DNA of 26,729 nucleotides from an uncultured archaeon (GCA_964373755.1 CAYJVV010000001.1:1-26729), one strand, 5' to 3'. Positions 262 through 15,083 are shown, numbered from the stretch's first letter. Numbers and translations are program-made. The notes: generated by a model from the sequence alone, not told the origin.

Positions 262-344
262 GGAGGTATTGGAACCTAAGGTTCTAATGCCGGGGAAGAG
301 ACGTTCTATCTGAATCTAGGAGGTATCGGAACCTAGGTTCTGAT
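262..344. repeat. Direct repeat pair GGAGGTATYGGAACCTA(A)GGTTCT at 262-285 and 319-341, each with a GAACC/GGTTC palindromic core
   Basis: One copy lies in the T-loop intron of tRNA-Leu and the other immediately 3' of the tRNA. They differ by 1 mismatch and 1 indel over 24 nt. Confidence 0.9.
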
Positions 345-383
345 TTTCGAACTCTTGAAGGCACTAAGCCACAGGATTTCTTA

Positions 384-416
384 AGAAGGAGAAAACCAAT
401 GGTTTTTCTCCCTTCT
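384..416. repeat. Palindromic element AGAAGGAGAAAACC-AAT-GGTTTTTCTCCCTTCT inside the anticodon-loop intron of tRNA-Leu
   Basis: Imperfect inverted repeat, nearly identical (1 indel, 1 mismatch) to the reverse complement of 14443-14474. Confidence 0.9.
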
Positions 417-578
417 AACCCTCATTCCTTTCAAGGGATTTTTTTCACTGTTGATTATCTCAACTCGAAACTTAAGTCACCTGCTTAAGTAAGGCCCGAT
501 TATTTCTTTCGCAATAACCGTCCTGCCCCTTTGGCCATTCCCTAGCTCTTTTGCTTAAACTTGTTTTTCGTAAGCACT

Positions 579-606
579 TTTTCCGCTAGTTTTCCGCTAG
601 CGCTTT
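579..606. repeat. Tandem 11-mer TTTTCCGCTAG x2 (579-589, 590-600) extending into TTTCCGCTAGCGCTTT, within the D-loop intron
   Basis: Read directly; 591-606 matches 12562-12577 at 15/16 positions. Confidence 0.85.
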
Positions 607-640
607 TTACGAAGCAAAAAGGGCTACTCGGGAACCCCGG

Positions 641-1040
641 CTCTACAATTAATCTTTGAGAAGAAGTAATTAAAACTATACATTAAGCATCAAGTACTTT
701 CTCGAACGCTAGAAAATTCTGTTCCATATGCTCTTTAAACTTAGAAGGAATATTTCTTCCAGTCAAATCTCTATCAAGTGTATCATGTACTATACGATTA
801 CTATACACAACGTGAACGCCATCATCTTCTCCTCTAACTTTCAGTCTATCTTGTGGAATTACAATATAAGACATGGTAGATTTTCCGCGGCATGTCCAGC
901 CTGCTAATGTGTACCAATCTCTATCAGGATCATATCGCACAACTCTCCTTGTGACTTCTCCCACAGAGTCCTGTTGCCTTATACGTACATCCATCCCGAT
1001 CTCCAACAAATCTACAGCCATATTCTCAGTCTCTACAATT
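641..1040. repeat. Exact 10-bp direct repeat CTCTACAATT (641-650 and 1031-1040) flanking an orphan ORF
   Basis: Read directly. One copy overlaps base 1 of tRNA-Leu and the other contains the rpoD stop codon. Confidence 0.85.
683..1021 (-). CDS. Hypothetical protein (orphan, 112 aa)
   Basis: Intact ORF co-oriented between rpoD and tRNA-Leu; no family recognised. Confidence 0.7.
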   Translation of the reverse strand: MAVDLLEIGMDVRIRQQDSVGEVTRRVVRYDPDRDWYTLAGWTCRGKSTMSYIVIPQDRLKVRGEDDGVHVVYSNRIVHDTLDRDLTGRNIPSKFKEHMEQNFLAFEKVLDA

Positions 1041-1806
1041 TCTTTTTTGCTTCAGAGAGGAAATTTTCTGCGCTATTCTCAAGAACGTCTAAGGCAGAAG
1101 AGACTATTTCTTCAGGCTTCAAACCTGATACTGATTCTACTGTGAATATAAAAGAATTCTCGTCAGCCTTAACGGTCACGCCGTCGCTTACTTCAACACA
1201 TTTCATGCAAAGTATGCAATTTGCTTCCTTCGCAACCCTTGGCTTTCCATCGCGTTTCTCAAAAACATGAGTTGGGCATACATCAACTATTACATTATCT
1301 GCTTTCTCCGGATTTACACGAACAATAGGAAAGTTCTGGTATCCTACAACAGCTGCCTGCCATTTCACATGCTCCTTGCCGAAACCCAGTTGCGCTGTGG
1401 CTGAGAACTTCAATTTTTGTTTTTCAAGAAGCTCTACGATTGGTATGTTTAGATCGAGTACGCTGGCACCATCGCTTTTCATGTCGCCAGCATTGACAAT
1501 GCATGGGCCTTCTTTTTCAATGATAAATGTGACTTCGCAGTTAGCACAGCCTTTGCCTCCACACTTGCAATCTTCCTTAAGCCTGAACATCTTTGAGTCG
1601 AATGTCAAGGGGATTAAACCGAGTCGGTGGGCAATAACCTCGTCAAAAAGTCCTGATGTATTTTCCTCAAAATACACCTCTTCAATGGCCATTATCGGTA
1701 TCTCGCCAAACATTGTCCTGCGCAGCGCGTTAGCGAATGCAAAATCTATCCCTTCTATGACGAATTTCAATTTTGCATCTTTTTGCTCAAGAATTTTTAC
1801 TTGCAT
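1033..1806 (-). CDS. rpoD: DNA-directed RNA polymerase subunit D (Rpo3) with ferredoxin-like Fe-S domain
   Basis: FANALRR, ENTSGLFDEVIAHRLGLIPL, ATAQLGFGKEHVKWQ, VCP...CILCMKC; follows rps11. Confidence 0.97.
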   Translation of the reverse strand: MQVKILEQKDAKLKFVIEGIDFAFANALRRTMFGEIPIMAIEEVYFEENTSGLFDEVIAHRLGLIPLTFDSKMFRLKEDCKCGGKGCANCEVTFIIEKEGPCIVNAGDMKSDGASVLDLNIPIVELLEKQKLKFSATAQLGFGKEHVKWQAAVVGYQNFPIVRVNPEKADNVIVDVCPTHVFEKRDGKPRVAKEANCILCMKCVEVSDGVTVKADENSFIFTVESVSGLKPEEIVSSALDVLENSAENFLSEAKKKL

Positions 1807-1847
1807 TATTTCATCTCCGAACTAAAAATTTGACAGAAACGTTTAAA

Positions 1848-2237
1848 TTACACACGCCTTCCACGTCTGCCGCCCTTCTTCTTGCAGCCATCGTGAGGTA
1901 TTGGTGTCACGTCTTCTATAGAACCTATCCTGAAGCCAGCACGTGCTAGAGCCCTTATGGCTGGTTGCGCTCCCTGGCCAGGCATCTTTGATTTTATTCC
2001 GCCAGGCGCCCTGATGCGTATATGCAGATTTGTTATGCCTTGTGCCAATGCCTTTTCTGCTGCCTTTCTCGAAGCGACCATGGCTGTGAAAGGCTTGCCC
2101 TTATTCATGTCCTTGTCAGATACCATGCCGCCTGAAACAGTGGTAATGGTCTCGCTGCCAGTTATGTCAGTGATATGCACTATAGTATTGTTAACTGAAG
2201 AAAATATGTGCGCAACTCCCCATCTTTCTTTATCCAT
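1848..2237 (-). CDS. rps11: 30S ribosomal protein S11 (uS11)
   Basis: [22 protein letters not shown]...[22 protein letters not shown]. Start moved to the ATG at 2237, which has an upstream GGTGA SD. Confidence 0.97.
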
Positions 2238-2742
2238 TTTGTTCACCACTTGCTTGCTTTGCCTGTTCAATAACAGCTGTTTTTATCTTTGAGCTCAAGG
2301 AAATATTTCCTTCTTCATCGTGTTTGACTATGTAGCTGGGCCATCTGATCCTTCTTTTATTGACTAAAATATGGCCATGAACAATAAGCTGCCTTGCCTG
2401 TTTAGGGCTGTTAGCAAGGCCTTTTTTATGCACAACTGTCTGCAATCTGCGTGAAAGTATATGATTAAGATTCGTTTCAAGCACTTCATCAAGGGTCTGG
2501 CATTTTATTCCAAGCTTGTTTAATTTTTCTAAAAGCTCTTTTTCTTTTTTCTCATCATGATGTGCCTGTAAATCCCTAGCACGTCTCCTGAAGTCACGAA
2601 GTACGGCTTCTGCTTTCCAAATTTCCTTTTTCCTACGTAAGCCATACTCTTGCTCTAGCTTCTTTTCTCTTTCTAGCCTGTTCTTGTCGTAAGGCTTCTG
2701 CGGCCGCGAATATTTTCTCTCCTGTCTTTTCGGGTGTCCCAT
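2230..2742 (-). CDS. rps4: 30S ribosomal protein S4 (uS4)
   Basis: [19 protein letters not shown]...[10 protein letters not shown]...[28 protein letters not shown]. Confidence 0.97.
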
Positions 2743-2744
2743 GA

Positions 2745-3020
2745 TTAAAGAATCTCCAGGGTTCTTAGAAAGGCAATTCTCATGACTTGTCTTGAATATT
2801 CTTTTGCAGTCGGTGATGTTTCTCTTACAGACAATTTATAATTGTCTAATGCATCTTTACCGTAGACATATGAAATTATAGATTCTTGAAATCTTTGACG
2901 ATATTGTATCAAAGCCTCTTTTCCACCAGTTCTATAAACATTGGAAGTTCTATGTCTAAGACCCGAAATAATAATCTTTGGCCTGTAACTTGGACTCTTT
3001 AAAGTAGCGGATTTTGTCAT
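2745..3020 (-). CDS. Hypothetical protein (orphan, 91 aa) between rps13 and rps4
   Basis: Intact ORF with a TAATG overlap with the rps13 stop; ends 2 nt before the rps4 ATG; AT-rich. Confidence 0.65.
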   Translation of the reverse strand: MTKSATLKSPSYRPKIIISGLRHRTSNVYRTGGKEALIQYRQRFQESIISYVYGKDALDNYKLSVRETSPTAKEYSRQVMRIAFLRTLEIL

Positions 3021-3520
3021 TATTTCTTCTCCTCTTTTGCAGCAGGTTTTGCGGCTTGCTGAATTTTCTTCTTCGCGACGCCTACTGTCTTCTGCGTCCT
3101 GAACGAGCTTCTTGTTCTCTGACCGCGGACAGGCAACCCAAACTCATGTCTTACGCCTTTGTAGGCATGCATCCTTTTTAGCATGTTTATGTCTTCCATT
3201 TTCTTGAACTGCAGCTCAGAACCGTGTACGTGCACATTGGTACCAGTCTCGATATCCTTTCTCCTGTTCATAATCCACATCGGCAGTTCGCTGTTCTCTT
3301 TTCCAAGGGATTTTACAAAGGCTTCAAGGGTCTTTATCTCTGTTTCTGTCATAGCACCAAGTTTCTTTTTCCCGTCTATGCCTGTTTTCTGAAGTATTGC
3401 ATTAGTAAGCATGAAGCTGATACCAGGGATTCTTCTCAGGCTTCTGCTAACAGAAAGCTCGCCGTTTATATCGGTTGCAAGGAATCTTACAATCTTTCTA
3501 ATTTCAGTTTTCTGTTCCAT
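3020..3520 (-). CDS. rps13: 30S ribosomal protein S13 (uS13)
   Basis: NRRKDIETG...DINMLKRMHAYKGVRHEFGLPVRGQRTRS. Likely start at 3520 (TGATG overlap with rpl24e). Confidence 0.96.
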   Translation of the reverse strand: MEQKTEIRKIVRFLATDINGELSVSRSLRRIPGISFMLTNAILQKTGIDGKKKLGAMTETEIKTLEAFVKSLGKENSELPMWIMNRRKDIETGTNVHVHGSELQFKKMEDINMLKRMHAYKGVRHEFGLPVRGQRTRSSFRTQKTVGVAKKKIQQAAKPAAKEEKK

Positions 3521-3684
3521 CAAACCGCTCTTGCCCATTTGAATTTCCTTGGATCTCTTCCAAGCTTAATCATATTTTTTTCGCATTTCAACGAATCGAA
3601 CCACATAATTTTGCCGGTCTTTGCAATTACCATCTTTCCTGTTCCTTGCTCAATTCTTTTTGAACAGAAACTGCAGTTTGCCAT
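3520..3684 (-). CDS. rpl24e: 50S ribosomal protein L24e
   Basis: Hand translation (not in the ORF track): [54 protein letters not shown]; follows rps28e. Confidence 0.95.
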
Positions 3685-3685
3685 T

Positions 3686-3892
3686 TTATCGCCTGCCATA
3701 GCTGCCTGAAGATTCCATTTCTGTTTCGCGGAGCATTAGGATGTCGCCTATCCTTACAGGGCCTATAACATTTCTCGTGAGAATCTTGCCCTTGTCACGG
3801 CCATCTGTTACACGGGCCTTTACTCGCAGGACTCCCTTTGCACCTACTCGTCCAATAATATTAATGACTTCTGCTGGTGAAGCTTCTTGCAT
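3686..3892 (-). CDS. rps28e: 30S ribosomal protein S28e
   Basis: [12 protein letters not shown]...[24 protein letters not shown]. Confidence 0.96.
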
Positions 3893-3904
3893 AGTATCAC
3901 ATTA

Positions 3905-4486
3905 TTAATGTCCCAGATATCGCTGTGGAGGAATTCTTTTTGGTCGTCTGAAGATGCCAACTTCTGTCTCATAGACTGTATTTTCACTTTCCCACTTTAA
4001 CACCCTTTCCATGTCGGCGCCTGGTATAACCAAAACAGGTCTTTTTGAAATATACACAGCTTCGTGATCTGTAAAATCCACCGTTTCTTGCTTTGCCAAT
4101 AATGAAAATGGATGATCATTGTCTATCATCATTCGAGCCAAATGCTCATCCATTCTTAAACGCCTAGCCATATCGTCTGAAGAATAGCCACCGAAGACTG
4201 AAATAACTGTTGCGTATGTTAATTTCAATAAGTTTGGATCATATACTCTTGCATTTTTGTTTCTTAATATTCTCCTTAATGAAAATCTATGATAACGATC
4301 ACTTTCTTCTAACGATTGCCAGTTTTCTGGAACTATTTCATGGAATCTTGAAGTATCAGGAACATAAGCCTGGTCTAGTGTAGCGACAATCCTAGCTCTG
4401 TCTAAAGGTATCAGCCCTGGATGCTTTTCAAGTCCATAAGCCAGTGTTTCTATTGCTGCTCTGTCCAAGGTATTTAATCTCTTCAT
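3905..4486 (-). CDS. Hypothetical protein (orphan, about 193 aa) between rpl7ae and rps28e; possible HTH segment
   Basis: Intact ORF (ATG 4486; upstream in-frame GTG 4495). GYSSDDMARRLRMDEHLARMMI resembles an HTH. Confidence 0.7.
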   Translation of the reverse strand: MKRLNTLDRAAIETLAYGLEKHPGLIPLDRARIVATLDQAYVPDTSRFHEIVPENWQSLEESDRYHRFSLRRILRNKNARVYDPNLLKLTYATVISVFGGYSSDDMARRLRMDEHLARMMIDNDHPFSLLAKQETVDFTDHEAVYISKRPVLVIPGADMERVLKWESENTVYETEVGIFRRPKRIPPQRYLGH

Positions 4487-4522
4487 ATTCAACACTCACA
4501 AAGTAAAGTGAAAAAGCCGAAC

Positions 4523-4837
4523 TTACTTCAAAACGTCGCCGAGTTTCTTCTTGCCTTCGCCGGCATCAAGTACTGCGACTGCGGCTGTAGATACTTCTAT
4601 GCCCGCCGCCCGGCCCAGCTCGGATTTGCTGGAAACGCGAGCCAATGGTATTTTTTTCTCGTCGCACAATGGCTGCAGATGCATAATAATTTCTGGCGGA
4701 TCCACGTCGTCTGCAACGACAATAAGCTTGGCTGTGCCGCGTTCTGCTGCTTTTGTTGCCTCGTTGAGGCCTCGCCTAATCTTACCTGTTTCGCGGGCTA
4801 TTTCGATGACTTCAAGAATTTCATTGACCTTGTTCAT
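4523..4837 (-). CDS. rpl7ae: 50S ribosomal protein L7Ae
   Basis: GKIRRGLNEATKAAERGTAKLIVVADDVDPPEIIMHL..LCDEKKIP....SKSELGRAAG. Confidence 0.97.
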   Translation of the reverse strand: MNKVNEILEVIEIARETGKIRRGLNEATKAAERGTAKLIVVADDVDPPEIIMHLQPLCDEKKIPLARVSSKSELGRAAGIEVSTAAVAVLDAGEGKKKLGDVLK

Positions 4838-4936
4838 TTAACACACCTTGTCTCAATTACAAAGCTGTATTAAGAAACAAAACTATTAAAATTAACCTTT
4901 TTAAGGATTTTATCTGAAAGATTGTTGTGATTAAAG

Positions 4937-5110
4937 ATGGAAGATAGAAGCAAGTTCCTGAAGGTGAAATGCGAGAAGTGCAAGAACGAGCAGATAATAT
5001 TCAACAGATGTGCTACCGTAGTCAAATGCCTTGTTTGCGATTCTATCTTGGCTGAACCTACAGGCGGCAAGGCCAACATTCAGGCAAGCATTCTGCAGGT
5101 TCTAGGTTGA
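4937..5110 (+). CDS. rps27e: 30S ribosomal protein S27e
   Basis: Hand translation: MEDRSKFLKVKCEKCKNEQIIFNRCATVVKCLVCDSILAEPTGGKANIQASILQVLG. Confidence 0.96.
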   Translation: MEDRSKFLKVKCEKCKNEQIIFNRCATVVKCLVCDSILAEPTGGKANIQASILQVLG

Positions 5111-5181
5111 TGAGAGGGAAGCAATGGTATGAAACACTATGTGTTCGTGTTGTTCTCCTTCTACTCTTTCAGGTGAATTTT

Positions 5182-5934
5182 ATGGTCAAAAAAAAGGGAT
5201 TTCCAGAGATTGGCGAACTTGTTATCTGCAGGATAAGCAAGATTAACCCCCATTCTGCTTTTGCCCTTATGGAAGAATATGACATAGAAGGCATGATCCA
5301 TATATCAGAGATTACTAGCGGCTGGGTTCGAGACATAAGACAATTTCTCAAAACAGGCGAAACAGAAGTTGCAAAAATCTTAAGCGTGGACGATCGCGGG
5401 CACGTGTCAATGTCTCTAAAACGCGTTAGTGATCTTGACAAGAAGAGAAAGATGAAATCTTACCGTATGGAACATAGAGCAGAAAAGATGTTAGAGCTGG
5501 CTGCACAGATGCTCAACAAGAAGCCAGAAGAGGCTTACAATGAAGCTGGCAGCAAGCTGATGGAGGGCTTTGGATCTCTTTACGAAGGCTTTCTCGCCGC
5601 AATGCAGAAACCGGATTCTCTTTTGAAAAAGGGCGTTCCAGAGAAATGGGTAGCTGTGCTTAAGGAGATTGCAGAAAAGAACATCGAGCAGAAGGAATTT
5701 GAATTCAAGGCAACAGTGTCAGTTAAAACTTTTAAACCCGCGGGGATATATGTTATAAAAGGCATACTGTCAGAAGCGGAAAAAATGCACCTGAAGGTGC
5801 ATTATATAGCAGCACCGTCATATCTTGTCAAATATTCATCAAAAACTGCAAAGAAAGGTGAGAAGGAATTTCAGGAAAAGCTCAACAAGCTTGCAGAAAA
5901 TAAAGAAGCTGACGTGTCTTTTGTGATGGCATGA
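5182..5934 (+). CDS. eif2a: Translation initiation factor 2 alpha subunit (aIF2-alpha)
   Basis: FPEIGELVIC...EGMIHISEITSGWVRDIR...SMSLKRV...YIAAPSY. ATG at 5182 has an AGGTGA SD; rps27e-aIF2a-nop10 context. Confidence 0.95.
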   Translation: MVKKKGFPEIGELVICRISKINPHSAFALMEEYDIEGMIHISEITSGWVRDIRQFLKTGETEVAKILSVDDRGHVSMSLKRVSDLDKKRKMKSYRMEHRAEKMLELAAQMLNKKPEEAYNEAGSKLMEGFGSLYEGFLAAMQKPDSLLKKGVPEKWVAVLKEIAEKNIEQKEFEFKATVSVKTFKPAGIYVIKGILSEAEKMHLKVHYIAAPSYLVKYSSKTAKKGEKEFQEKLNKLAENKEADVSFVMA

Positions 5935-6080
5935 AACTAAGAAAATGCTTGAAATGCAAAACTTATTCACTTAAGGCAATTTGTTCATGCGGTTCTGCAA
6001 CAGCCAGTCCGCACCCGGCGAAATATCATCCTGCCCGCGCAAAATACATTCGACTTGCACGACTCAAGAAAATAAATTGA
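5931..6080 (+). CDS. nop10: H/ACA RNP protein Nop10
   Basis: Hand translation: MKLRKCLKCKTYSLKAICSCGSATASPHPAKYHPARAKYIRLARLKKIN; ATGA overlap with aIF2a. Confidence 0.9.
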   Translation: MKLRKCLKCKTYSLKAICSCGSATASPHPAKYHPARAKYIRLARLKKIN

Positions 6081-6090
6081 TGTTGATTTT

Positions 6091-6858
6091 ATGCAGACAA
6101 AAATGCAGATACTAGAGAAAGTGAAGCTGAACAAACCTGTTCTCATTGAAGGATTGCCAGGAATAGGCAATGTTGGTCGGGTCGCAGCTGGATACCTGAT
6201 ATCTGAACTGAAGATGAAAAAATTTGCAGAGCTATACTCACATCATTTCCTGCCGCTTGTTATGCTGCAGGAAGGCGGGGTAGCAAGCTTATTGAAATGT
6301 GAATTTTACTATCAGAAGCAGAATAATCTAATCGTGCTGACCGGTGATACTCAGAGCATTTCACCGGAAGGTCACTACGAAGTTTGCGAAGTTATACTGG
6401 ATTTCGCTGAAAAGATGGGTGTCAAGGAAATTATAACCCTTGGCGGGTTCGCAGAAGGCAAGCAGGTGGACGAACCTCGTATTGTAGGGGCTGTGAACGA
6501 CAAGTCACTTCTGAAAAAATATGGAAAGTATGACATTGATTTTGGAAAAGAGCATCCTGTTGGCACTGTTGTAGGTGCTAGTGGTCTATTGCTTGGTCTT
6601 GGAAGAAGCCGCGGAATCGATGGTTTATGCCTGATGGGTGAAACATTCGGCCTTCCTTTAATGACAGACCCAAAGGCAGCTGATAGGGTCCTTCATGTGC
6701 TTTCAAAAATCCTTGGCTTAAAGATGGACTTGTCTAAGCTTGAAAAGACAATAAAAGGCATGGAAGACAGGATCAAGAAAACGGAAAAAATCCATAAAAA
6801 GATACTTGAGCAGATACCTAAGCAAAGCAAGGATGATCAGATAAGATACATTGGCTAA
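6091..6858 (+). CDS. PAC2-family proteasome assembly chaperone (TIGR00162-like)
   Basis: LIEGLPGIGNVGRVAAGYL, IITLGG, VVGASGLLLG...GLCLMGET; conserved position after nop10. Confidence 0.92.
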   Translation: MQTKMQILEKVKLNKPVLIEGLPGIGNVGRVAAGYLISELKMKKFAELYSHHFLPLVMLQEGGVASLLKCEFYYQKQNNLIVLTGDTQSISPEGHYEVCEVILDFAEKMGVKEIITLGGFAEGKQVDEPRIVGAVNDKSLLKKYGKYDIDFGKEHPVGTVVGASGLLLGLGRSRGIDGLCLMGETFGLPLMTDPKAADRVLHVLSKILGLKMDLSKLEKTIKGMEDRIKKTEKIHKKILEQIPKQSKDDQIRYIG

Positions 6859-6933
6859 GCTGGCATAACTAAAAGCTTAAGAATTTGCAGTATTATTATA
6901 GGCTGGTTAACACTTATTTTCTGAGGATGAAAA

Positions 6934-7128
6934 ATGTTTGAATATAGTGGACTCACGAGATTCGAAAAGACAAGGGTAATATCTGCGCGGGCGCTACAGA
7001 TATCGATGGGAGCCCCAGTGCTCATAAAAACACAGCTGCACGAGCCAAAAGAGATAGCTAAACTTGAGTTTGAAAAGAATGTGCTGCCAATAACTGTAAA
7101 AAGGCGGGCACCTATGAAAAACGACTGA
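6934..7128 (+). CDS. rpoK: DNA-directed RNA polymerase subunit K (Rpo6)
   Basis: LTRFEKTRVISARALQISMGAP...LPITVKR. Confidence 0.95.
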   Translation: MFEYSGLTRFEKTRVISARALQISMGAPVLIKTQLHEPKEIAKLEFEKNVLPITVKRRAPMKND

Positions 7129-7145
7129 ATTCTTCTGGTAATTAT

Positions 7146-7733
7146 ATGCCTGTTAAAAAAGAGAAATTGTTGGTGTCAAGAGAACAGTACCTTTCAGCAG
7201 GCGTTCACATAGGGCTGACTACGAAAACAGCTGATATGAAAAAGTTCATATACAAAGTCAGGCCTAACGGGCTTGCAGTACTCAACGTTGCTACGATTGA
7301 CAAACGGATAGGTTATGTAGCGAACCTGCTTGCGGAAAAGAAAAACGTACTTGTTGTTTCCCGGAAAGAAAACGGCCAAGTGCCAGCAAAGAAGTTTGCA
7401 GAATTAATAGGTGTAAAATCAATAATGGGCAGGTTCATGCCAGGATCTCTTACAAACCCCACTTACAAAGAGTTCTTCGAGCCCGATATAATTGTCATAA
7501 CAGACCCTCTTGCAGACAAGCAGGTCATAAAGGAAGCCGTCCAGATGCGCATCCCTATCATAGGGCTTGCTGATACATTCAACGAGACAAACTTCCTCGA
7601 TATAATAATTCCATGCAACAACAAGGGCAAGAAGTCTTTAGCTCTAGTTTACTGGATTCTTGCAAAACTGATAACTGAAAAACGCAAAGAGAAATTCGAA
7701 GCCACTCTTGAAGACTTTGGTTACGAGAAATAA
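7146..7733 (+). CDS. rps2: 30S ribosomal protein S2 (uS2)
   Basis: YLSAGVHIG, GRFMPGSLTNP, TDPLADKQVIKEA, IIPCNNKGKKSLALVYWILA. Confidence 0.97.
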   Translation: MPVKKEKLLVSREQYLSAGVHIGLTTKTADMKKFIYKVRPNGLAVLNVATIDKRIGYVANLLAEKKNVLVVSRKENGQVPAKKFAELIGVKSIMGRFMPGSLTNPTYKEFFEPDIIVITDPLADKQVIKEAVQMRIPIIGLADTFNETNFLDIIIPCNNKGKKSLALVYWILAKLITEKRKEKFEATLEDFGYEK

Positions 7734-7739
7734 TTATAA

Positions 7740-8621
7740 TTAAACTAATTTAACAACTGCTCTTCTCATTTCTTCTGCTATCTGTTCTGCTCTTGTTTTA
7801 ACTACTGCTTTTTCAACTTCTTCTTTTGCTTGTTCAATCTTAAGGAGTTCCAATGCATAAGGTTTTGCTATTCTTTCCAATTGGTCCGCATTAATATCAA
7901 ATCTACCCAATACGGATTGTTTAGTTTTAGCAGCGCCAACAAAATCATGTCGTACAGATCCATCCACAATTTCGGATACAACATTTTCATAATAAGGAGC
8001 ACGTGATTTAATTCTGTTTTTATTATATGCAAGTAAAGTTTTAACTTTTAATTGTTCAATCTCGCGGTTTCCGCCTAGAAGTTGTTCATATTCAAACATT
8101 TTTCTATTAGTTTCTTCCAATTGTTTTGCTCTTATGCGAGCTTCTTTTTCTTTTAATTTTACTTCTTGTTCACTCAACTTTCTATCTAATTCTGCTCTTT
8201 CTTCAGTGGAAAGACTATCATAATTTATAGGTCTTATAAGTGGCATGTCATGACGATCAGCATCATCAAGTTCTGCTGGTCTCTTTACTTCTCTGCGTGA
8301 TCTTGCAGCTTTATAGCCTACAAATCCAAAACCTGCTGCTAATATCGTTGCTATTCCTGTAGCAACTGCATTAGCCACTTTATATTTAGTATCATTTACT
8401 TTAGTATCATTTGCAATAGAACCTTGCGATAACTTTGATGCATAAGGTCTTTCTCCTAAAGTAAAAGCTAGCCGCAGTTCTTTTCGATAAGGTTCTTCTG
8501 TACCAATAGTTCTAGTTTCTTGAATAGGAGTACCAGAAATATTATTATAAGCAACAGCAGAGTTTAGTGTAGCTGCAGCAAATAAACCAGTGGCAACTCC
8601 TAACCTTTTAACCCATCCCAT
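7740..8621 (-). CDS. Hypothetical membrane protein (orphan, 293 aa)
   Basis: Long AT-rich ORF with a hydrophobic N-terminus, a second hydrophobic segment (VANAVATGIATILAAGFGFVGY) and an E/K-rich helical tail. Confidence 0.8.
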   Translation of the reverse strand: MGWVKRLGVATGLFAAATLNSAVAYNNISGTPIQETRTIGTEEPYRKELRLAFTLGERPYASKLSQGSIANDTKVNDTKYKVANAVATGIATILAAGFGFVGYKAARSRREVKRPAELDDADRHDMPLIRPINYDSLSTEERAELDRKLSEQEVKLKEKEARIRAKQLEETNRKMFEYEQLLGGNREIEQLKVKTLLAYNKNRIKSRAPYYENVVSEIVDGSVRHDFVGAAKTKQSVLGRFDINADQLERIAKPYALELLKIEQAKEEVEKAVVKTRAEQIAEEMRRAVVKLV

Positions 8622-8740
8622 ATGTTATCCCTCTTGAGTAACTAATAAGCGAAAGCTTAATAAGACTTGCTGAACCACTCTGAATACTATAGTCTACGCA
8701 CTAAAGATATTAAAAACTACCAGATTCTTAGGCGATGACA

Positions 8741-9523
8741 TTACGTAAGCCTTACAAGGCCCCCTGTTTTTCTTGCACGATGAAAAACAATCTTGTAAGC
8801 CAGAAGCGAGAAGACAGCATAAGCAACAGTTATCAAAAATCCTTCTATCAAAACGGCTGAATTCATAGTTCCTGCTGAGACTAAGCTCCTTGTCGCTTCG
8901 AAGATGTTTGTGAAAGGCATAAGTTTTGATACAACTTGAACTGGCTCCGGGAATATGGAAACAGGGTAGAAGGGTGCGGAAAGCAATATGAAGGCCTGCA
9001 ATGCGGACCAAGCAAGAAAGCTGTATTCTCTACCTGCTGCAATAATCATGGCGGCAAGTAGTATTGCCAATGTCAACGAAGCAAACAACGTCAAGGCTGA
9101 TAAAATTAGTATATCTGATGCGTTAGTCGCTATCAATGAGAGGCCAAACATATAGTAAGATATTCCAAGCATCAACAGCATTATTCCAATGGATATGATT
9201 ATTGCAAATATCATGCGTGCTGTGAGATACTCAAACTCGGTTATGCCTGTAACGAGTATTTGTTTTAAGCTGCCAGACCATGTATCGTCATTCATCTGCA
9301 TGTTTACACTGCTTTGCGCAAGATAAGCAAAGTTCCAGAATATGTTGGCAACTAGAACAACAAGTCCGGCTTCTACAGCCTTATCTCGAACAAAAACAGA
9401 AAACAAGCCCCATATAATTATTGTAGTTAGTGGAAAGTAAATGAATTCTGCAATCTTCCATCTAGAATTCTTGAATACAAACATGTCGTAATAGATCAAC
9501 GCAGCTATTTTGTACAATTTCAT
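8741..9523 (-). CDS. ABC-2 type transporter permease
   Basis: About 6 TM segments; WSGSLKQILVT and SAPFYPVSIFPEPVQ.VSKLMPFT motifs; ATGA overlap with the ATPase. Confidence 0.9.
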   Translation of the reverse strand: MKLYKIAALIYYDMFVFKNSRWKIAEFIYFPLTTIIIWGLFSVFVRDKAVEAGLVVLVANIFWNFAYLAQSSVNMQMNDDTWSGSLKQILVTGITEFEYLTARMIFAIIISIGIMLLMLGISYYMFGLSLIATNASDILILSALTLFASLTLAILLAAMIIAAGREYSFLAWSALQAFILLSAPFYPVSIFPEPVQVVSKLMPFTNIFEATRSLVSAGTMNSAVLIEGFLITVAYAVFSLLAYKIVFHRARKTGGLVRLT

Positions 9524-10440
9524 TTCTTGTCACCAAGTATTTTTACGAAATAGTCCTCGAGTGTTGGTTTCCTGCTCTCAATTTCGGTTATTTCTATGCC
9601 TTTTTCAGCAAGCATTGAGAGTGTTTCGCTTATGTTCTCATCAGCAGGCAGTTCTTTTTTCAAAATATTTCCTTTTATGACAAAACCTCTTTTCCTTAGA
9701 AACTCCTTGTTCTTCACGCTTCTGACTTTAATTATCAGGTCGTATGTGGCAAATTTTCTTAGCTTAACGGATTCAACACTTCCAATATCAATTATTCTGC
9801 CTTTGTTAATGAAAGCTATCCTGTCACATAGCTGTTCCAATTCATGCATGTAATGACTTGTCAGTATGATAGTGGTGCCAAGCTCCTTGTTTATTCTCTT
9901 TATCTCATTTCTAACCTTGATTGCAATGTCAGGATCTAAGCCCACCGTAGGCTCATCAAGAAGCAAAAGTTCAGGACTATTCAATAGTGCTTTAGCCATT
10001 ATGAGCCGCATTCTTTCGCCTGTAGAGATATTGCTAAACTTGCTTTCCATAATGCGCTCTATCTCAAAGAATTTTGCCAGCTTTTTTGTTTCTGTTATTC
10101 TCTTGTTCTTTGGAATGCCATATAATCGTCCGTGAAACTCAAGTATGTCTTTTACTTTCAATGCCCAATGAAATCTTGTTTCTCCTGAAACAAAATTCAT
10201 CTTTTCTGCCAATTCGCGGTTTTTTAGTGGATTCTTTCCAAAGATTTTTACATTTCCAGAGTCTGGAAATAAGATACCGATTAATATATTGAGCAATGTA
10301 GATTTTCCCGCGCCGTTGGGACCAAGAAGACCGAATATCTCACCTTCTTCTATGTCAAATGAAATATCTTTCAAGGCGAAGAAATCTTTACCCTGGTATT
10401 TGAACTTTTTAGATACATTCTCAACTTCGACAACAGACAT
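9520..10440 (-). CDS. ABC transporter ATP-binding protein (DrrA/CcmA-like)
   Basis: Walker A GPNGAGKST, signature ISTGE, Walker B LLLLDEPTVGLD, H-loop TSHYM. Confidence 0.95.
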   Translation of the reverse strand: MSVVEVENVSKKFKYQGKDFFALKDISFDIEEGEIFGLLGPNGAGKSTLLNILIGILFPDSGNVKIFGKNPLKNRELAEKMNFVSGETRFHWALKVKDILEFHGRLYGIPKNKRITETKKLAKFFEIERIMESKFSNISTGERMRLIMAKALLNSPELLLLDEPTVGLDPDIAIKVRNEIKRINKELGTTIILTSHYMHELEQLCDRIAFINKGRIIDIGSVESVKLRKFATYDLIIKVRSVKNKEFLRKRGFVIKGNILKKELPADENISETLSMLAEKGIEITEIESRKPTLEDYFVKILGDKK

Positions 10441-10472
10441 AAAAACAACACTGAAATAATTTATAGAAAAAA

Positions 10473-10997
10473 TTACTTCAAATTTTCTACAGCTATCTTT
10501 GTAGGCGTAGGTAATTTGTAGCTTGCTTTTTTCAGCGCGATCTGCGCGACGCCTATTGCAGCTTTATTGACACGTACTTCAATAATCTTCTGCCCTTTTC
10601 TGACCTGTGCCGCAGTGCTGATAGGCTTGCCAAAGGACATGCGCATCCCTTGCTGGAATCTGTCAGCGCCTGCGCCTGTTGCCAGTGCATTCTCACGTAA
10701 CACGTGGTGCGGATATACACGAACTTTGAGGAAGAATGTGGCACCTTTGCCTATGTTCTTTTCTAGCGCCTGGACAGCAGCTATTCTGCCTGCTTCAAGG
10801 GCGTTATGTCTTATTTGAACATCCCTTTGAGAAACAAGAAAAAGGGCGTTATCATAGTCTGATTTGGTGCCAAGCTCAAATTCTGTGATCTTAGGCTTCG
10901 GAACACCCTTTACATACCCTTTCTTAGGCACCCTTGTGGATTGCCTTGTGTAAGGCCTTTCAAGTCTTCTGTAACACCGTCCAGGACGTATGGCCAT
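10473..10997 (-). CDS. rpl10e: 50S ribosomal protein L10e (uL16)
   Basis: MAIRPGRCYR, QIRHNALEAGR, RVYPHHVLREN..ATGAGADRFQQGMRMSFGKP. Confidence 0.97.
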   Translation of the reverse strand: MAIRPGRCYRRLERPYTRQSTRVPKKGYVKGVPKPKITEFELGTKSDYDNALFLVSQRDVQIRHNALEAGRIAAVQALEKNIGKGATFFLKVRVYPHHVLRENALATGAGADRFQQGMRMSFGKPISTAAQVRKGQKIIEVRVNKAAIGVAQIALKKASYKLPTPTKIAVENLK

Positions 10998-11002
10998 AAT
11001 AA

Positions 11003-11323
11003 TCATCTCGTTTCTACAGGCTCTCCTAAGAAAGTTCTAATAGTTACAAATTGATCTCTTAAACGTCTTTGACTTTCAGCAGCTTGCTGATACCAGTCTA
11101 AATGTATTGCTTTTTCTTCTGGCAAAGCTTCTATGGCTTCATAACCAAAACCTAATTGTAAAGGTTGGTTGCTCCGTAAAATCACATGATTTCCTACTAA
11201 ACTACTCTCAGTCCAAGGTAGTGGAGGGTTGTAGCCAATCAGTTTTGCATCTGTTTTAATAAGATCTGCTAAAGGCATTGCAGCTTCGCTTGTAAATCTA
11301 AGTTTGTAAACAGTATCACCCAT
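11003..11323 (-). CDS. Hypothetical protein (orphan, 106 aa) upstream of rpl10e
   Basis: Intact ORF ending 5 nt before the rpl10e ATG; no family recognised. Confidence 0.65.
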   Translation of the reverse strand: MGDTVYKLRFTSEAAMPLADLIKTDAKLIGYNPPLPWTESSLVGNHVILRSNQPLQLGFGYEAIEALPEEKAIHLDWYQQAAESQRRLRDQFVTIRTFLGEPVETR

Positions 11324-11353
11324 TTTAATCCAACCATAATCTTCTGCAGATAA

Positions 11354-11362
11354 TATTTATAA
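11354..11362 (-). promoter_or_regulatory. Candidate archaeal TATA box TTATAAATA for the orphan/rpl10e unit
   Basis: Matches the archaeal TATA consensus, lying just after the antiporter stop. Confidence 0.5.
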
Positions 11363-11364
11363 GC

Positions 11365-12492
11365 CTATTTGCCGAAAAAGCGCAGAAGAAGTGGAGACAG
11401 GATTACGCTCAGAAGTGTAAAAATAAGTATGGAAGTGTAAGCGCTGGGGTTAATAATTGCAGCAGTTAATGCAATTTGCGCTATGATTATCGTGTATTCT
11501 CCTTTTGGAAGCATTGCTAGAGAGATTAATTTCTTCTCCCTATTTTTGAGATTGAAAAACCCGCCGAATATGCCGTAAGCTGCCAGTTTACCAATGAGGG
11601 CTGCAACAAGCAGGAGAACTACAAGCCACAGATTAATAGAAAAAAGATCTATAGACAGTGCTGCGTAGGAAAAGAAAAGCGGAATAAAAAACCCATGGCC
11701 TATAGTTTTTATTTTCGGCACAATAGTCGATTCTGTAATCTGGAAGTTTCTCATAACTATTCCAACCAAGAAGGCTCCTGCAAGGCCTACAAGTCCGGTT
11801 TTTTCACTGATGAACGCCGCTAAAAACAGTATTACCAGCGGGATTGAAATGAATATTTGCTCGTCTTTTGCAAAACGGAACAAAGCCAATAATCTTTTTG
11901 TTATGATTGGTCCTATTGTAATTGCCGCTCCTAGAAAAATAATGAATGCTGAGAGTAAAAGTAAGATTGTTCCTTGATCGGCGGTCCCGCTGAAAACCAG
12001 AGAAAGTAAAGAAATGGCAATTATGGCGAGAAAACTCTCAACCAATTCAGAAGAAATTACGATCTTGTAAACCCTTGTTTTATATTCGCCTAAAGCTGCT
12101 ATAGCGCTCATAGTAGCTGTTGGACTGCTAGCAAGTAATGCGGCGCCAACGACGCTTGCAAGCAAAGTATCGCCAAAGGTGTAGAAAGTCAGGACAAAAC
12201 ATACAGCGAACGACGCGAGAGAAGAAAAGATAGCGAGAAAACTGCTTGAATATATTTCACTTTTCTCTGTTTTCATATTCAGCCCGATAAGAAAGAATAC
12301 AAACAAAATGCCGATACTTGCTATCTCCTGCAATGTCGCATCCGGAATTACAAGATGCAGAATTGGTCCTGCAGTAATGCCGCCAAAAATTTCACCGGCC
12401 AAAGATGCTATTTTCAATCTTTCAGCAATTTCACCGAATATCTTGGCACTTATAATGAGAATTGCCAAGCTGAGAAGAATCTCAACAGCCAT
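11365..12492 (-). CDS. Cation:proton antiporter (CPA2, Na+/H+ or Kef-type)
   Basis: About 12 TM; LAGEIFGGITAGP, IGILFVFFLIGL, LAGAFLVG, FFIPLFF, MLPKGEY. Confidence 0.92.
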   Translation of the reverse strand: MAVEILLSLAILIISAKIFGEIAERLKIASLAGEIFGGITAGPILHLVIPDATLQEIASIGILFVFFLIGLNMKTEKSEIYSSSFLAIFSSLASFAVCFVLTFYTFGDTLLASVVGAALLASSPTATMSAIAALGEYKTRVYKIVISSELVESFLAIIAISLLSLVFSGTADQGTILLLLSAFIIFLGAAITIGPIITKRLLALFRFAKDEQIFISIPLVILFLAAFISEKTGLVGLAGAFLVGIVMRNFQITESTIVPKIKTIGHGFFIPLFFSYAALSIDLFSINLWLVVLLLVAALIGKLAAYGIFGGFFNLKNREKKLISLAMLPKGEYTIIIAQIALTAAIINPSAYTSILIFTLLSVILSPLLLRFFGK

Positions 12493-12524
12493 ATTCCTAG
12501 ATTGTTTTCGGCAAAATAAATAAG

Positions 12525-12738
12525 CGCCGAGAGAGGGACTTTCAGGCCTTTCTTTCGTTTCTTTCCGCTGGCGCTTTCTTTCAAAGAAAGGGCCATTTGA
12601 ACCCTCAAGCCCTTGCGGACACCAGCTTAATAGGTCGAGAACCTAGGTTCTCATCCCTATAACCCTCCACTCCTAATCAAAGTATTATGGAGTTTGGTCT
12701 TTCCAGGCTGGCGCGATACCAGGTTACGCGATCTCGGC
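12525..12738 (-). tRNA. tRNA-Ser(GGA) with two introns (37/38: 12628-12700; 59/60: 12539-12595); mature length 84 nt
   Basis: Acceptor GCCGAGA/TCTCGGC with G73, anticodon stem CCAGC/GCTGG with loop CT-GGA-A-A, variable arm GTCC-GCAA-GGGC, T stem GAGGG/CCCTC. The 59/60 intron has a strict BHB (H TTCA/TGAA, bulges AAT and AGT, h' GGCC/GGCC). Confidence 0.93.
12637..12652. repeat. Perfect 16-bp palindrome GAGAACCTAGGTTCTC within the tRNA-Ser 37/38 intron
   Basis: The core GAACCTAGGTTC is identical to 329-340 in the tRNA-Leu intron. Confidence 0.9.
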
Positions 12739-12805
12739 ACTGACTCGGCAATAGATTAGTTAAGGTATAACCTAATAAGAACTTAACTGCTTCTGAGAAA
12801 AAGAG

Positions 12806-12973
12806 TTAGAATTTCTCTGCATCCTCGATGAGCATATTGGGTATGTCACCATCAAGAACGGCGTATTTGAGCCTGCATTTGTTGCATATGATCACATTTT
12901 TTTTAGCTTCGTACTTTATTTTGCCCTTGCACTTCGGGCAAACAAGTATATCAAGAAAATCTTTTTTCAGCAT
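12806..12973 (-). CDS. Trm112-family methyltransferase activator
   Basis: MLKKDFLDILVCPKCKG.......IICNKC...YAVLDGDIPNMLIEDA; start placed at ATG 12973. Confidence 0.9.
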   Translation of the reverse strand: MLKKDFLDILVCPKCKGKIKYEAKKNVIICNKCRLKYAVLDGDIPNMLIEDAEKF

Positions 12974-13272
12974 TTTTTCACTCTCGCTTTCCATTCTAAT
13001 TTAGCAGATTCAAGGAAATCTTTTGCAATGGGACTGTAAGCTGTGAATGTAGGTCCTCTGTCAAAACCTATTATAGCCACATCAACTTCTCCTTGGAAAA
13101 GTGCATAGCCACCTTGATTAGATCTTTCTAACGAATAACCATGAAGTAGAGCTTCTTCACCAATCATTTTAAACCACTCGTATCCTTTTCTGAAAGTTTT
13201 CGCTCCAGTGAGAAGTCCACGAAACATTCGTCTTATTTTTCCATCTCCCATGAGAATCGTTCTATCTTCCAT
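12967..13272 (-). CDS. Hypothetical protein (orphan, 101 aa) between cbf5 and Trm112
   Basis: Intact ORF whose stop overlaps the Trm112 start (ATGCTGA). Confidence 0.65.
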   Translation of the reverse strand: MEDRTILMGDGKIRRMFRGLLTGAKTFRKGYEWFKMIGEEALLHGYSLERSNQGGYALFQGEVDVAIIGFDRGPTFTAYSPIAKDFLESAKLEWKARVKKC

Positions 13273-13311
13273 TTTGTTTCAGCTTCTCGGAATATTTGTT
13301 GAAATATCTAT

Positions 13312-14274
13312 TTATTCCTTTTTTAGCTTCGGGTAAGTCCCTTTTTCGATAATTACCCTGTCTGTTTTTGCTGCAAGCCCTTTTCTTTTTATCATTTCTT
13401 CTGCACTGAATGCTGATTTTGCCAGTGCTACCAGCTCGCCTTTCAATGAAATTATTGCTATCAGTTCATCAGGTTTTATTTCCTTTTGAACAAAGCATAT
13501 GCCTCCTGAATAAAGTGGCGATCCATTGGCTATTGAATGCACGGCAGAATCTTTGATTATAATCTTTGGCAAATGTTCGACGGCTGATTCTACAGGCAAT
13601 ATATATTCTCGTAACTTCTCGTTTCCATTTTCTTTCCAGTCCATGTAAGCTATAGCAAGATCCTGCATTTTTACAAGATGACTTTCATCGAACCTGCCGG
13701 CGCGTGTTCTGCGCAGTTCTGTCATATGAGCTCCTCCTATTTGCTGACCGATTTGATGACATAGTGTTCTAACATACGTACCCGCCTGAGCAACAATTCT
13801 GAATGCAATATCTTTATCGTCTCTGTCCAACAATTCGAAAGAATAAACATGCCTTATACGTTCTTTCCTCGCCACTGCACTTCTTACAGGGGGTGTCTGC
13901 TTTATTTCGCCGATAAATTTTTTAATAGTTTTTTGAAAGGTGTGATCATCTACATTTCTATGAAGATGCATCACACCTACATATTCCTTGTCCAATCCCT
14001 GCAGTGCCGGTATGACTTTACATGCATTATCCAAAGTTATTGGAAGGACTCCGCTCACAGAAGGATCTAAGGTCCCAGAGTGCCCTGTGCGAGGAATTAT
14101 CAAAAGTTTTTTCACTGTTGCAACAACATCATGGCTGGTAGGTCCAGGCCACTTGTCAAGAATTACAAGACCGTTTCTTATGAGTTCTTCAACACTTCTA
14201 GCTCCCGGATATCTTCCGAATTCTAGATGCGAAACTTCCTCTGATTTTACAAAGAAACCGTCTTTTTCACGCAT
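13312..14274 (-). CDS. cbf5: H/ACA RNA-guided pseudouridine synthase Cbf5 (TruB family)
   Basis: LDKWPGPTSHDVV, GHSGTLDP (catalytic Asp), QTPPVRSAV, GTYVRTLC, C-terminal PUA domain. Confidence 0.97.
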   Translation of the reverse strand: MREKDGFFVKSEEVSHLEFGRYPGARSVEELIRNGLVILDKWPGPTSHDVVATVKKLLIIPRTGHSGTLDPSVSGVLPITLDNACKVIPALQGLDKEYVGVMHLHRNVDDHTFQKTIKKFIGEIKQTPPVRSAVARKERIRHVYSFELLDRDDKDIAFRIVAQAGTYVRTLCHQIGQQIGGAHMTELRRTRAGRFDESHLVKMQDLAIAYMDWKENGNEKLREYILPVESAVEHLPKIIIKDSAVHSIANGSPLYSGGICFVQKEIKPDELIAIISLKGELVALAKSAFSAEEMIKRKGLAAKTDRVIIEKGTYPKLKKE

Positions 14275-14394
14275 AATAAGAACTTGTCACAAAAGTACAA
14301 AAACAGAATATTAAATCATTTATTTGGAAGGATGGAAGGAAGAAAGTGTAGATAGAGGAAAAATAATATCTTAATCAGGAAAGAGGATTATCTG

Positions 14395-14474
14395 CAAAGA
14401 GCACAGCTCTTTGAGATGCCAGAAACCTACGGTTTTCTGAGCAGAAAGGAGAAAAACCTTGGTTTTCTCCTTCT
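14395..14474. repeat. Three adjacent inverted repeats (14395-14413, 14420-14439, 14443-14474)
   Basis: CAAAGAGC-ACA-GCTCTTTG; CAGAAACC-TAC-GGTTTTCTG; AGAAAGGAGAAAAACC-TT-GGTTTTCTCCTTCT. Confidence 0.9.
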
Positions 14475-15083
14475 TTATACATAAATCTTCATCAATCTTC
14501 TCGAAGTCATCATGACGAAAAAGAACGAAAGCAAGTACCATCCAAGCCAGCCGAGTTCACTTCCTACAAATGGTGCGTTAAAGGGCAGCACGGCTGCAAC
14601 GGGCGAAATCTTTACACTATTTTCAACTACTGCTGCATCAAAAACGTATTTTCCATCTTGAAGCCTGCATGGCATTTCGCATGTTTGGTCATCGAATGAT
14701 ACTGAGTTATCTTCAACTATAAGTGAGCCACTGTTGAATAAAATTTCTCCTTTTCCGTCTTTTATTTCTACTGTCTTCTCTCCATAAACAGCTCCTATCC
14801 AAGGCACTGAAACAAGCGTTATTATCAAAGATATAATCATTGGTTTGAAGGACATCCTCATGAGTTTCCCTTGCTCTTTCATAGTCTCTTTGAAAAGCAT
14901 GTCAATTTCGCTTTTGTTCTGCGATTTTTGCTGTTCTTTCATCTTTGCATTGAGTTCCTTTATCCTTTCCCTTGATGATTTTGCATCCTGCTGGTTAATC
15001 AAAAATTTGTAGAATATATTCACTGCAATTGCTATTAAAAATGAAAATAAAATTATGTCTGCTGTAATAGAAAAGAATACCAT
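14475..15083 (-). CDS. DUF106 / EMC3-TMCO1 family membrane protein (Oxa1 superfamily)
   Basis: TM1, a cytosolic coiled coil, MSFKPMIISL, and C-terminal ELGWLGWYLL. Confidence 0.88.
   Translation of the reverse strand: MVFFSITADIILFSFLIAIAVNIFYKFLINQQDAKSSRERIKELNAKMKEQQKSQNKSEIDMLFKETMKEQGKLMRMSFKPMIISLIITLVSVPWIGAVYGEKTVEIKDGKGEILFNSGSLIVEDNSVSFDDQTCEMPCRLQDGKYVFDAAVVENSVKISPVAAVLPFNAPFVGSELGWLGWYLLSFFFVMMTSRRLMKIYV

Follow-up and report, generated by a model that had tools for sequence, protein, structure and literature searches.

The stretch considered here, hereafter the window, is 26,729 nucleotides (nt) long (GCA_964373755.1 CAYJVV010000001.1:1-26729). It is the entire contig C1 of a metagenome-assembled genome (MAG), G000, which comprises 816 kb in 98 contigs at 40% G+C and 91% completeness, and whose SecY relatives place it in the groundwater lineage Candidatus Aenigmatarchaeota (Aenigmarchaeota; a DPANN archaeon). 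Two tRNA genes of the window carry introns that contain short palindromic hairpins, and a spacer beside a DUF106 gene carries a free hairpin of the same kind. We call the repeat unit to which such a hairpin belongs a cassette and distinguish family A (the Leu 37/38 intron and the free copy), family B (the Leu 59/60 intron and the Leu trailer) and family C (the Ser 37/38 intron), along with a second intron module, F, and a nested element, X. Two congeners served for comparison, G001 and the almost closed G002 (919 kb in 5 contigs, searched complete), together with members of other genera, G005 and G013; about 25 genomes of the family were sampled. The features of the window are as follows.

288-641, minus strand: tRNA-Leu(UAA) with five introns, at 15/16, 30/31, 31/32, 37/38 and 59/60; removing 626-538, 521-491, 489-477, 470-378 and 345-302 leaves an 84-nt tRNA that ARAGORN calls Leu(taa); aligned to the G001 and G002 orthologs.

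371-437, minus strand: family A cassette in the Leu 37/38 intron, with purine tract GGAATGAGGGTT and the hairpin 384-416 (-13.1 kcal/mol); nhmmer E=1e-18, 90-92% identical to intergenic copies of G000, G001 and G002.

318-347, minus strand: family B cassette (AGAACC-TA-GGTTCCGATACCTCC) that takes up the Leu 59/60 intron, where G001 and G002 have an F-type hairpin.

262-290, minus strand: family B cassette in the tRNA-Leu 3' trailer, at the same place in all three congeners (-7.7 kcal/mol, z -2.4).

12525-12738, minus strand: tRNA-Ser(GGA) with introns at 37/38 and 59/60; the spliced form is ARAGORN Ser(gga); aligned to G002 and read in G001.

12629-12691, minus strand: family C cassette making up most of the Ser 37/38 intron, with AT-rich end, purine tract and GAGAACC-TA-GGTTCTC hairpin; over 64 nt it shares 86% identity with the copy in the tRNA-His intron (C6:17217-17280).

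14364-14390, plus strand: the AT-rich end of an A cassette (14364-14376) with its purine tract (14377-14390), read directly and parted from the hairpin by X.

14391-14445, plus strand: element X, lying within the A cassette and made up of two hairpins with TCTGC/GCAGA ends (-22.1 kcal/mol, z -2.8 to -3.6).

14443-14474, plus strand: free family A hairpin abutting the DUF106 TAA stop (14475-14477, minus strand); it is the hairpin half of the A cassette split by X.

Standard tools miss both tRNA genes. Scans of the window with ARAGORN and Rfam return zero tRNAs (no tRNA signal at E<=1) because multiple introns interrupt the genes. At genome scale, ARAGORN finds 0 intron-free tRNA genes in G000 and 0 in G002, and the Rfam tRNA model exceeds its cut-off at just 7 places in G000. 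In place of these tools we located tRNA genes by a T-arm and acceptor search followed by in-silico splicing, which yielded about 25 genes, each 86-354 nt long, in G000 and about 39 in G002. Leu minus five introns and Ser minus two introns are recognised by ARAGORN as Leu(taa) and Ser(gga), and the hairpins therefore sit in introns, as a first, sequence-only reading of the window had proposed.

That reading had also described the palindromes as one dispersed family, and all of its coordinates are correct; the family extends further than first noted. The hairpin at 384-416 aligns as its reverse complement with the free copy at 14443-14474(75) over 34 nt at 94%, with 1 mismatch and 1 gap (blastn). 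The core GAACCTAGGTTC recurs at 329-340 and 12639-12650, where 100 dinucleotide shuffles of the window predict 0 occurrences, and has 7 exact copies in G000; a related core with one extra base, GAACCTAAGGTTC, lies at 272-284. The apex that these hairpins were said to share is an AGAACC-N2-4-GGTTCT apical stem common to families A, B and C and to hairpin 2 of X. One member changes allegiance: AGAAACC-TAC-GGTTTTCT is found at 14421-14438 as described, but is part of X (14391-14445) and not of the same hairpin family. Further copies occur throughout the genome and in related MAGs, in tRNA introns and intergenic DNA alike, as expected of a repetitive extragenic palindrome (REP) or miniature inverted-repeat transposable element (MITE)-like family. 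A count of hairpins that combine an ACC-N1-4-GGT apex with a stem of 10 bp or more gives 25 for G000 and 23 for G002, versus 4 in each of the shuffled genomes.

These counts bear on the simplest alternative, that the hairpins resemble one another by chance or that the intergenic copy is an assembly chimera. The hairpin arms are of low complexity, shuffled sequences fold nearly as well, and coverage in public runs is low, with contigs ending at repeats. Yet shuffling predicts 0 matches, and the similarity runs on for 46-94 nt, beyond the palindromes: the Leu copy, for example, is 91% identical over 46 nt to intergenic C14:1325-1370 and 90% over 48 nt to C16:1869-1914. The same composites also recur in the independently assembled G001, G002 and G005. 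All public runs with sequence of this organism are DNA metagenomes, whose contigs are short and of low coverage; they leave the assembled arrangement at 14443-14474 neither confirmed nor contradicted and report no joint there. We regard chance or chimerism as effectively refuted. Nor is the intergenic copy a tRNA fragment, as the lack of window tRNA signal at E<=1 and a 43-nt orthologous spacer without a copy in G001 both indicate.

An alignment of about 40 copies defines the cassette as a non-coding unit of 46-60 nt with a fixed order of parts. An optional AT-rich end (TAATATTTTTA-like) is followed by a purine tract (GGAAAGAGG-like), a TTAG or TAGA turn and a hairpin of 12-15 bp, which has a purine 5' arm, the AGAACC-N2-4-GGTTCT apex and a pyrimidine 3' arm and folds with energies of -11 to -13.6 kcal/mol. 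The AT-rich end was weighed both as a native promoter and as a component of the element, and there are cases of each: it is native at the empty site of g2C2 21498 and lies within tRNA introns in C copies. Subfamilies vary by compensatory stem changes, and the purine tract mirrors the purine arm as both change (AGGAG/GAGGA, GGGAG/GAGGG, AGGAAG/GATGGA). Mirror matches reach 6.28/10 with a copy's own flank versus 5.67 with flanks permuted among copies (maximum of 200 permutations, 6.00). By this mirror covariation alone, a triplex-capable fold is possible.

Module F, a second intron module, is represented in the window by a copy in the Ser 59/60 intron (12541-12601) and has 60 copies elsewhere; it additionally occurs after tRNA 3' ends and in spacers. 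Its hairpin, CCCTTTCTT-N-AAGAAAGG with a CTGGAAAAGAAA-type tail, fills many T-loop and D-loop introns. Family B has a long form in which ATCAGAACCC and about 24 AT-rich nt precede GGTTCCGATACCTCC (C3:2297 and C56:3346 in G000; g2C2:9841, g2C2:29825 and g2C4:10132 in G002), and its tail resembles the 3' end of the host 16S rRNA (GATCACCTCC; GAT(C)ACCTCC). The 16S rRNA 3' region of G000 (C30:4140-4215) lacks the contiguous GTCGTAACAAGGTA that is present in G002 and has a 12-bp palindrome just upstream; it may contain an rRNA insertion or intron.

Filled and empty alleles at orthologous sites, which the sequence-only reading had named as a check, establish that cassettes have been acquired, lost and exchanged as DNA within the time over which these species diverged. 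In G001 the DUF106 spacer has no cassette and measures 43 nt; in G000 it contains X and A and measures 168-200 nt. The G002 spacer (g2C5:29700-30316, the ortholog of window 14275-14474) is 617 nt long and contains an interrupted C cassette and a minus-strand open reading frame (ORF) for a SET-domain protein that is missing from G000 and G001. Copies found only in G002 (g2C2 16440, 19735, 21498 and 7582; g2C4 70121) fall at sites that are empty in G000, with gaps of -5 to 22 nt. G000 has its own, at C14:1317 and C18:1032 relative to G002 and in the window spacer relative to G001. At C14:1317, G002 has the upstream stop overlapping the GTG start of aIF2-gamma, and in G000 about 85 nt lie between the two. 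Orthologous coding flanks of G000 and G002 are about 70-90% identical.

The clean junctions share a simple signature. At g2C2 21498 the filled allele reads TAA/GAGGAG...CCCTC/TAA (slashes mark the ends of the insert), versus a single TAA, the stop codon, in the empty allele. A 57-nt C cassette that lies 15 nt upstream of tRNA-Ser in G001 is placed between two TA, and G000 has one TA. tRNA loops show the TAA/GAGGAG junction again, once in an anticodon loop (C42) and once in a D-loop (C6:3359). The A copy in the tRNA-Ala(CGC) intron of G000 is identical at 48/48 positions to an intergenic copy of the other species, G002:C2:21502-21549, whose site is empty in G000.

Cassettes stand in tRNA genes in either orientation, and insertions are also nested within one another. 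X, a 55-nt two-hairpin unit with TCTGC/GCAGA ends and the commonest repeat (84 copies in G000 and G002), splits the A cassette of the window, with the purine tract (14377-14390) on one side and the hairpin (14443-14474) on the other. This composite recurs at C21:1892-1985 with 97% identity over 94 nt, and elsewhere too X interrupts A and C cassettes at one and the same point. Copies in G001, G002 and another genus, G005, are 85-88% identical. X is nearly always intergenic; it is frequently found just upstream of start codons. We read the DUF106 copy as an ordinary stop-codon insertion that was later hit by X.

The mobile-element reading of the palindrome family is well supported. We put at about 70% the probability of the fuller proposal, that the cassettes are short non-autonomous repeats of this Aenigmarchaeota lineage which are gained, lost and exchanged at the DNA level and which refill tRNA introns.

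Comparison of orthologous tRNA genes shows what such refilling looks like. Congeners vary in the number and position of introns in general, but a three-species alignment of tRNA-Leu finds introns 15/16, 30/31, 31/32, 37/38 and 59/60 in G000, G001 and G002 alike. Their interiors differ. The Leu 37/38 interior is 93 nt with an A cassette in G000 versus about 35 nt with an unrelated hairpin in G001 and G002, and the 59/60 interior is a B cassette in G000 versus an F-type hairpin in the other two; this T-loop intron of G000 comes close to being a copy of the conserved B trailer cassette. Since the same positions hold different interiors in the three species, the Leu cassettes refilled old introns and did not found them. 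The tRNA-His intron tells a similar story: G000 and G002 agree at 48/48 positions of its F part, next to which G000 carries a C module and G002 an A module. Metagenome contigs from three runs contain a joint from 377 to 520 with CTTAA between, which equals the Leu anticodon arm without its three introns. We rejected this as an intron-less allele of the species, given that its sides measure only 23-28 nt; it probably comes from a co-occurring relative.

The idea that the element seeds introns therefore fails for Leu 37/38 and 59/60 and retains one candidate in the window, the Ser 37/38 intron with its C cassette. Among the three congeners this intron is found only in G000, and G001 and G002 have an intron near 29/30 instead, which suggests a new intron gained in G000 and makes it the best candidate for a gain. 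Because G001 and G002 are sister to each other, the polarity of intron states depends on a thin outgroup: a pattern search across the family found an uninterrupted Ser(GGA) arm in one clear outgroup genus (G013) and several ambiguous matches. Seeding of new introns by cassettes in general is plausible but unproven. D-loop and T-loop introns of Ala(CGC) and a D-loop intron of His are likewise confined to G000. One further tRNA carries inserts from the T-loop on, a 117-nt composite of F and A in G002 (g2C3:94579-94800) and, in G001 (L087:1736-2510), a block of about 750 nt that includes a double-LAGLIDADG ORF. Each has a 20-25-nt direct repeat of the 3' end of the tRNA on either side, and G000 (C6:4591-4676) has neither insert.

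Exchange of modules in a fixed slot could also arise with no transposition at all, if instability of hairpins or triplexes (recombination, gene conversion, slippage) swapped modules among pre-existing hairpin sites. The His and Leu introns fit this well, as their modules change and their neighbours stay perfectly conserved, and so do the insertions of one tRNA between direct repeats of its 3' end, a tandem duplication in the G002 Leu trailer, the association of bacterial intrastrand triplex repeats with genome instability (PMC4666352) and the failure to find a cognate transposase. Swapping does not account for sites that are filled in one species and empty in the other down to a 4-nt or overlapping gene junction, with no prior hairpin, nor for junctions that are uniformly TA(A). 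We consider instability as the whole explanation unlikely.

Most cassettes lie outside tRNA genes. A census over G000 and G002 together (iterative nhmmer, two rounds, E<1e-3) counted 33 A, 36 C, 60 F and 84 X copies. The 69 A and C copies divide into 47 intergenic, 13 inside tRNA genes, 4 in tRNA flanks and 5 overlapping doubtful ORFs. As tRNA genes make up 5-7% of the DNA outside long ORFs, A and C are enriched there 3-4-fold, although the bulk of the family is intergenic. Sites inside tRNA genes include, for A, Leu 37/38, Ala 37/38, D-loop introns (C6:3359, C35) and others and, for C, Ser and His. Palindromes also cluster, with arrays in G001 C25 and C3. Strong A-cassette matches beyond the genus are limited to a few related genera.

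The enrichment raises the question of direction. Cassettes might begin as tRNA introns, with excised (perhaps circularised) intron RNA, or DNA, copied to other tRNAs, on the pattern of the Thermoproteales, and occasionally into intergenic DNA. Besides the enrichment itself, similar introns at one loop position of different tRNAs and subfamilies that are mostly tRNA-associated (g2C3 56655, g2C3 94651, C55:122, g2C4 200821) are what such a flow would produce. Against it, about 70% of copies are intergenic, including entire subfamilies that are intergenic only, cassettes occur in both orientations relative to tRNA transcription, the nested X is almost wholly intergenic, and insertion at TA(A) with duplication is typical of DNA insertion. 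Flow from introns outward is accordingly improbable in our view.

A stronger challenge comes from where the intergenic copies sit. In about 10-13 of 29 intergenic A and C copies, the end of the hairpin coincides with the TAA stop of a gene reading into the copy; a pyrimidine-rich tail follows, then the AT-rich promoter region of the next gene. Some cassettes occupy the entire spacer between convergent genes. These observations favour a reading in which cassettes are selected 3'-end or regulatory elements (terminator-like, mRNA-stabilising, or binding a protein or forming a triplex), with intron copies derived by duplication of tRNA trailers or leaders. The fold kept by compensatory and mirror covariation speaks for it too, as does the B trailer cassette, which is conserved in three species and repeated in the G000 Leu T-loop intron. 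One orthologous pair of A cassettes (C8:16771-16811 and g2C4:166259-166299) shows, surroundings included, 100% identity along 76 nt, between flanking genes of 72-85% identity, which could reflect selection, gene conversion or transfer. What function leaves unaccounted for are near-identical non-orthologous copies, the cross-species identity of an intron and an intergenic copy, clean presence/absence alleles and nested insertions, and the hairpin energies are modest (z -1 to -2.9). We hold it to be a serious contender that nonetheless falls short of an even chance. It is compatible with exaptation of a mobile repeat and so partly complements the proposal of DNA-level movement; placement at stop codons points to target preference, selection for a terminator-like or 3'-end function, or both.

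Several observations weigh against movement of the cassettes as mobile DNA. The strong orientation bias of intergenic copies toward the upstream stop codon points to function or selection and not to neutral mobile DNA, and some orthologous intergenic copies are better conserved than their flanks. Inside tRNA genes, C and F occur only in the sense orientation (6/6 and 13/13). Terminal inverted repeats are short or weak: 5 bp in C (TAATA...TATTA) and X (TCTGC...GCAGA), and in A only GAGGRRAA/TTYYCCTC-like ends. TA or TAA is repeated at only about three clean sites, and the apparent duplication could belong to the element. The seeding of new introns is contradicted for tRNA-Leu. Splicing of tRNA-borne cassettes is itself an inference from sequence. 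G000 has one EndA gene (C10:12937-13215), with its catalytic domain in a 340-amino-acid frame. The sequence-only reading had the hairpin supply the h' helix of a bulge-helix-bulge (BHB), which is at most a candidate role: a scan of the window for the hBHBh' motif (the BHB with its adjoining helices) returned about 900 matches per strand and did not discriminate, and the CTTAAG/CTTAAG pairing beside the Leu hairpin was identified by eye only. The gene and tRNA maps that underlie these comparisons are home-made, from long ORFs and from T-arm and acceptor matching.

The enzymes weigh on the same side. A search for the RAYT or IS200-like transposase that the sequence-only reading had anticipated found an IS200-type Y1 transposase in the genus, with three copies in G001 and copies truncated at three contig ends in G002; it was not found in the G000 assembly. 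As mobiliser of the cassettes it is conjectural, since its flanks (G001 L092:1400-1960; G002 contig ends) bear CCACCG-N-CGGTGG hairpins of its own and not AACC..GGTT. The CCACCG..CGGTGG hairpins form a separate REP/MITE-like family; G002 has about 35 of them and G000 about 10 (C9:3274, C48:6531 and others). A DDE transposase that makes TA or TTA duplications was considered and dropped: searches for IS630, Harbinger and IS4/5 DDE domains and for TnpB (PF13358, PF13359, PF01609, PF07282) gave 0 matches in G000, G001, G002 and G005. No parent autonomous insertion sequence (IS) with cassette ends was found in these four genomes. The cassettes could be mobilised in trans by a Y1/HUH enzyme, or could spread by recombination or instability at triplex-hairpin repeats.

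The course of events that we propose starts from what the comparisons show: cassettes land beside TA or TAA, between genes typically on a TAA stop with the hairpin toward the gene end, and in tRNA genes they are found in loops and, most of all, within existing introns. They would be tolerated in tRNA genes as the splicing endonuclease presumably removes the whole insert. Because the whole insert would be spliced out, tRNA introns may serve as refuges that the intergenic pool fills again and again with new interiors. In the window, the Leu 37/38 (A) and 59/60 (B) cassettes are refills of older introns and specific to the lineage. From time to time, such a unit may also give rise to an intron of its own.

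A bolder version makes such founding the rule. The cassettes would then be an archaeal counterpart of Introners, the intron-creating transposons of eukaryotes: a TA(A)-targeting, triplex-capable unit, mainly at stops, that founds BHB introns in tRNA loops through a permissive endonuclease. We advance this tentatively and think it somewhat likelier to be wrong than right. If true, it would explain interrupted tRNA genes throughout the lineage and name the arrival route of archaeal tRNA introns.

The findings make the origin of some archaeal tRNA intron sequence traceable, with the same 48-60-nt cassettes found at stops, in tRNA leaders and trailers and in introns. Species-level presence and absence, together with one cross-species identity of 48/48, tie an intron copy to an intergenic copy, and the arrival of tRNA introns thereby becomes testable within one small genome clade. 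A shared repeat is no proof of intron birth, because the tRNA-Leu cassettes only refilled older introns. Cassette repeats also account for the few or no tRNAs that standard finders report in these genomes and for their assembly breaks.

Earlier work frames the question of how such introns arrive. Integration of a mobile element at a tRNA gene has been proposed to yield introns and fragments in Caldiarchaeum (PMC3293823). A 2014 review describes the mechanism of tRNA intron transposition as unknown (PMC4090602), and a 2026 Asgard preprint that tested tRNA-to-tRNA copying, mobile elements and reverse transcription arrived at no general route. Our literature search found no description of intergenic repeat families that supply tRNA intron sequence.

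The closest archaeal precedent is the transposition of tRNA introns among tRNAs in Thermoproteales, by a mechanism given as unknown in the account relayed by the 2014 review (Fujishima et al. 2010, via PMC4090602). Both systems place near-identical sequence in different tRNAs and positions, and both show turnover after speciation, presumably at the DNA level. They differ in that about 70% of the copies described here lie outside tRNA genes, that the unit is a module in composite introns and not a whole intron, and that filled and empty intergenic alleles exist.

Bacterial REP/BIME sequences and REPINs are short intergenic palindromes mobilised by RAYT (Y1/HUH) transposases. Cassettes resemble them in occurring in tens of copies, in intergenic DNA, at gene 3' ends and in mosaic clusters, with a Y1 enzyme present in the genus. 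Unlike them, cassettes lack a GTAG-type tag, occur in tRNA genes as well and reside in an archaeal (DPANN) host, and the Y1 of G001 and G002 lies beside another hairpin family. Prokaryotic MITEs, such as the Correia elements of Neisseria and SM1-4 of Sulfolobus, offer a second parallel. Cassettes are likewise small and non-coding, occur in many copies and show what looks like a TA duplication and, in C and X, inverted repeats of a few bp at the ends; they too lie between a stop codon and the next promoter, where they may carry promoter- or terminator-like parts. They differ from MITEs in being 46-60 nt long, with a single hairpin and a mirror purine tract, no long terminal inverted repeats and no parent IS found.

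The mirror purine tract beside a hairpin is shared with the TMECO/BoxC intrastrand triplex repeats of bacteria, which are abundant and found at rearranged loci (Holder et al. 2015, PMC4666352). Sequence, host and context (tRNA introns) all differ, and the triplex proposed here derives from mirror covariation alone. Introners are eukaryotic transposons that create spliceosomal introns (bioRxiv 10.1101/2022.06.06.494994). The cassettes differ in relying on endonuclease and BHB splicing, in that the Leu cases are refills of existing introns and in that intron creation is only a candidate. They resemble Introners in that gene-borne copies would be removed as introns, and intron and intergenic repeat would have one origin.

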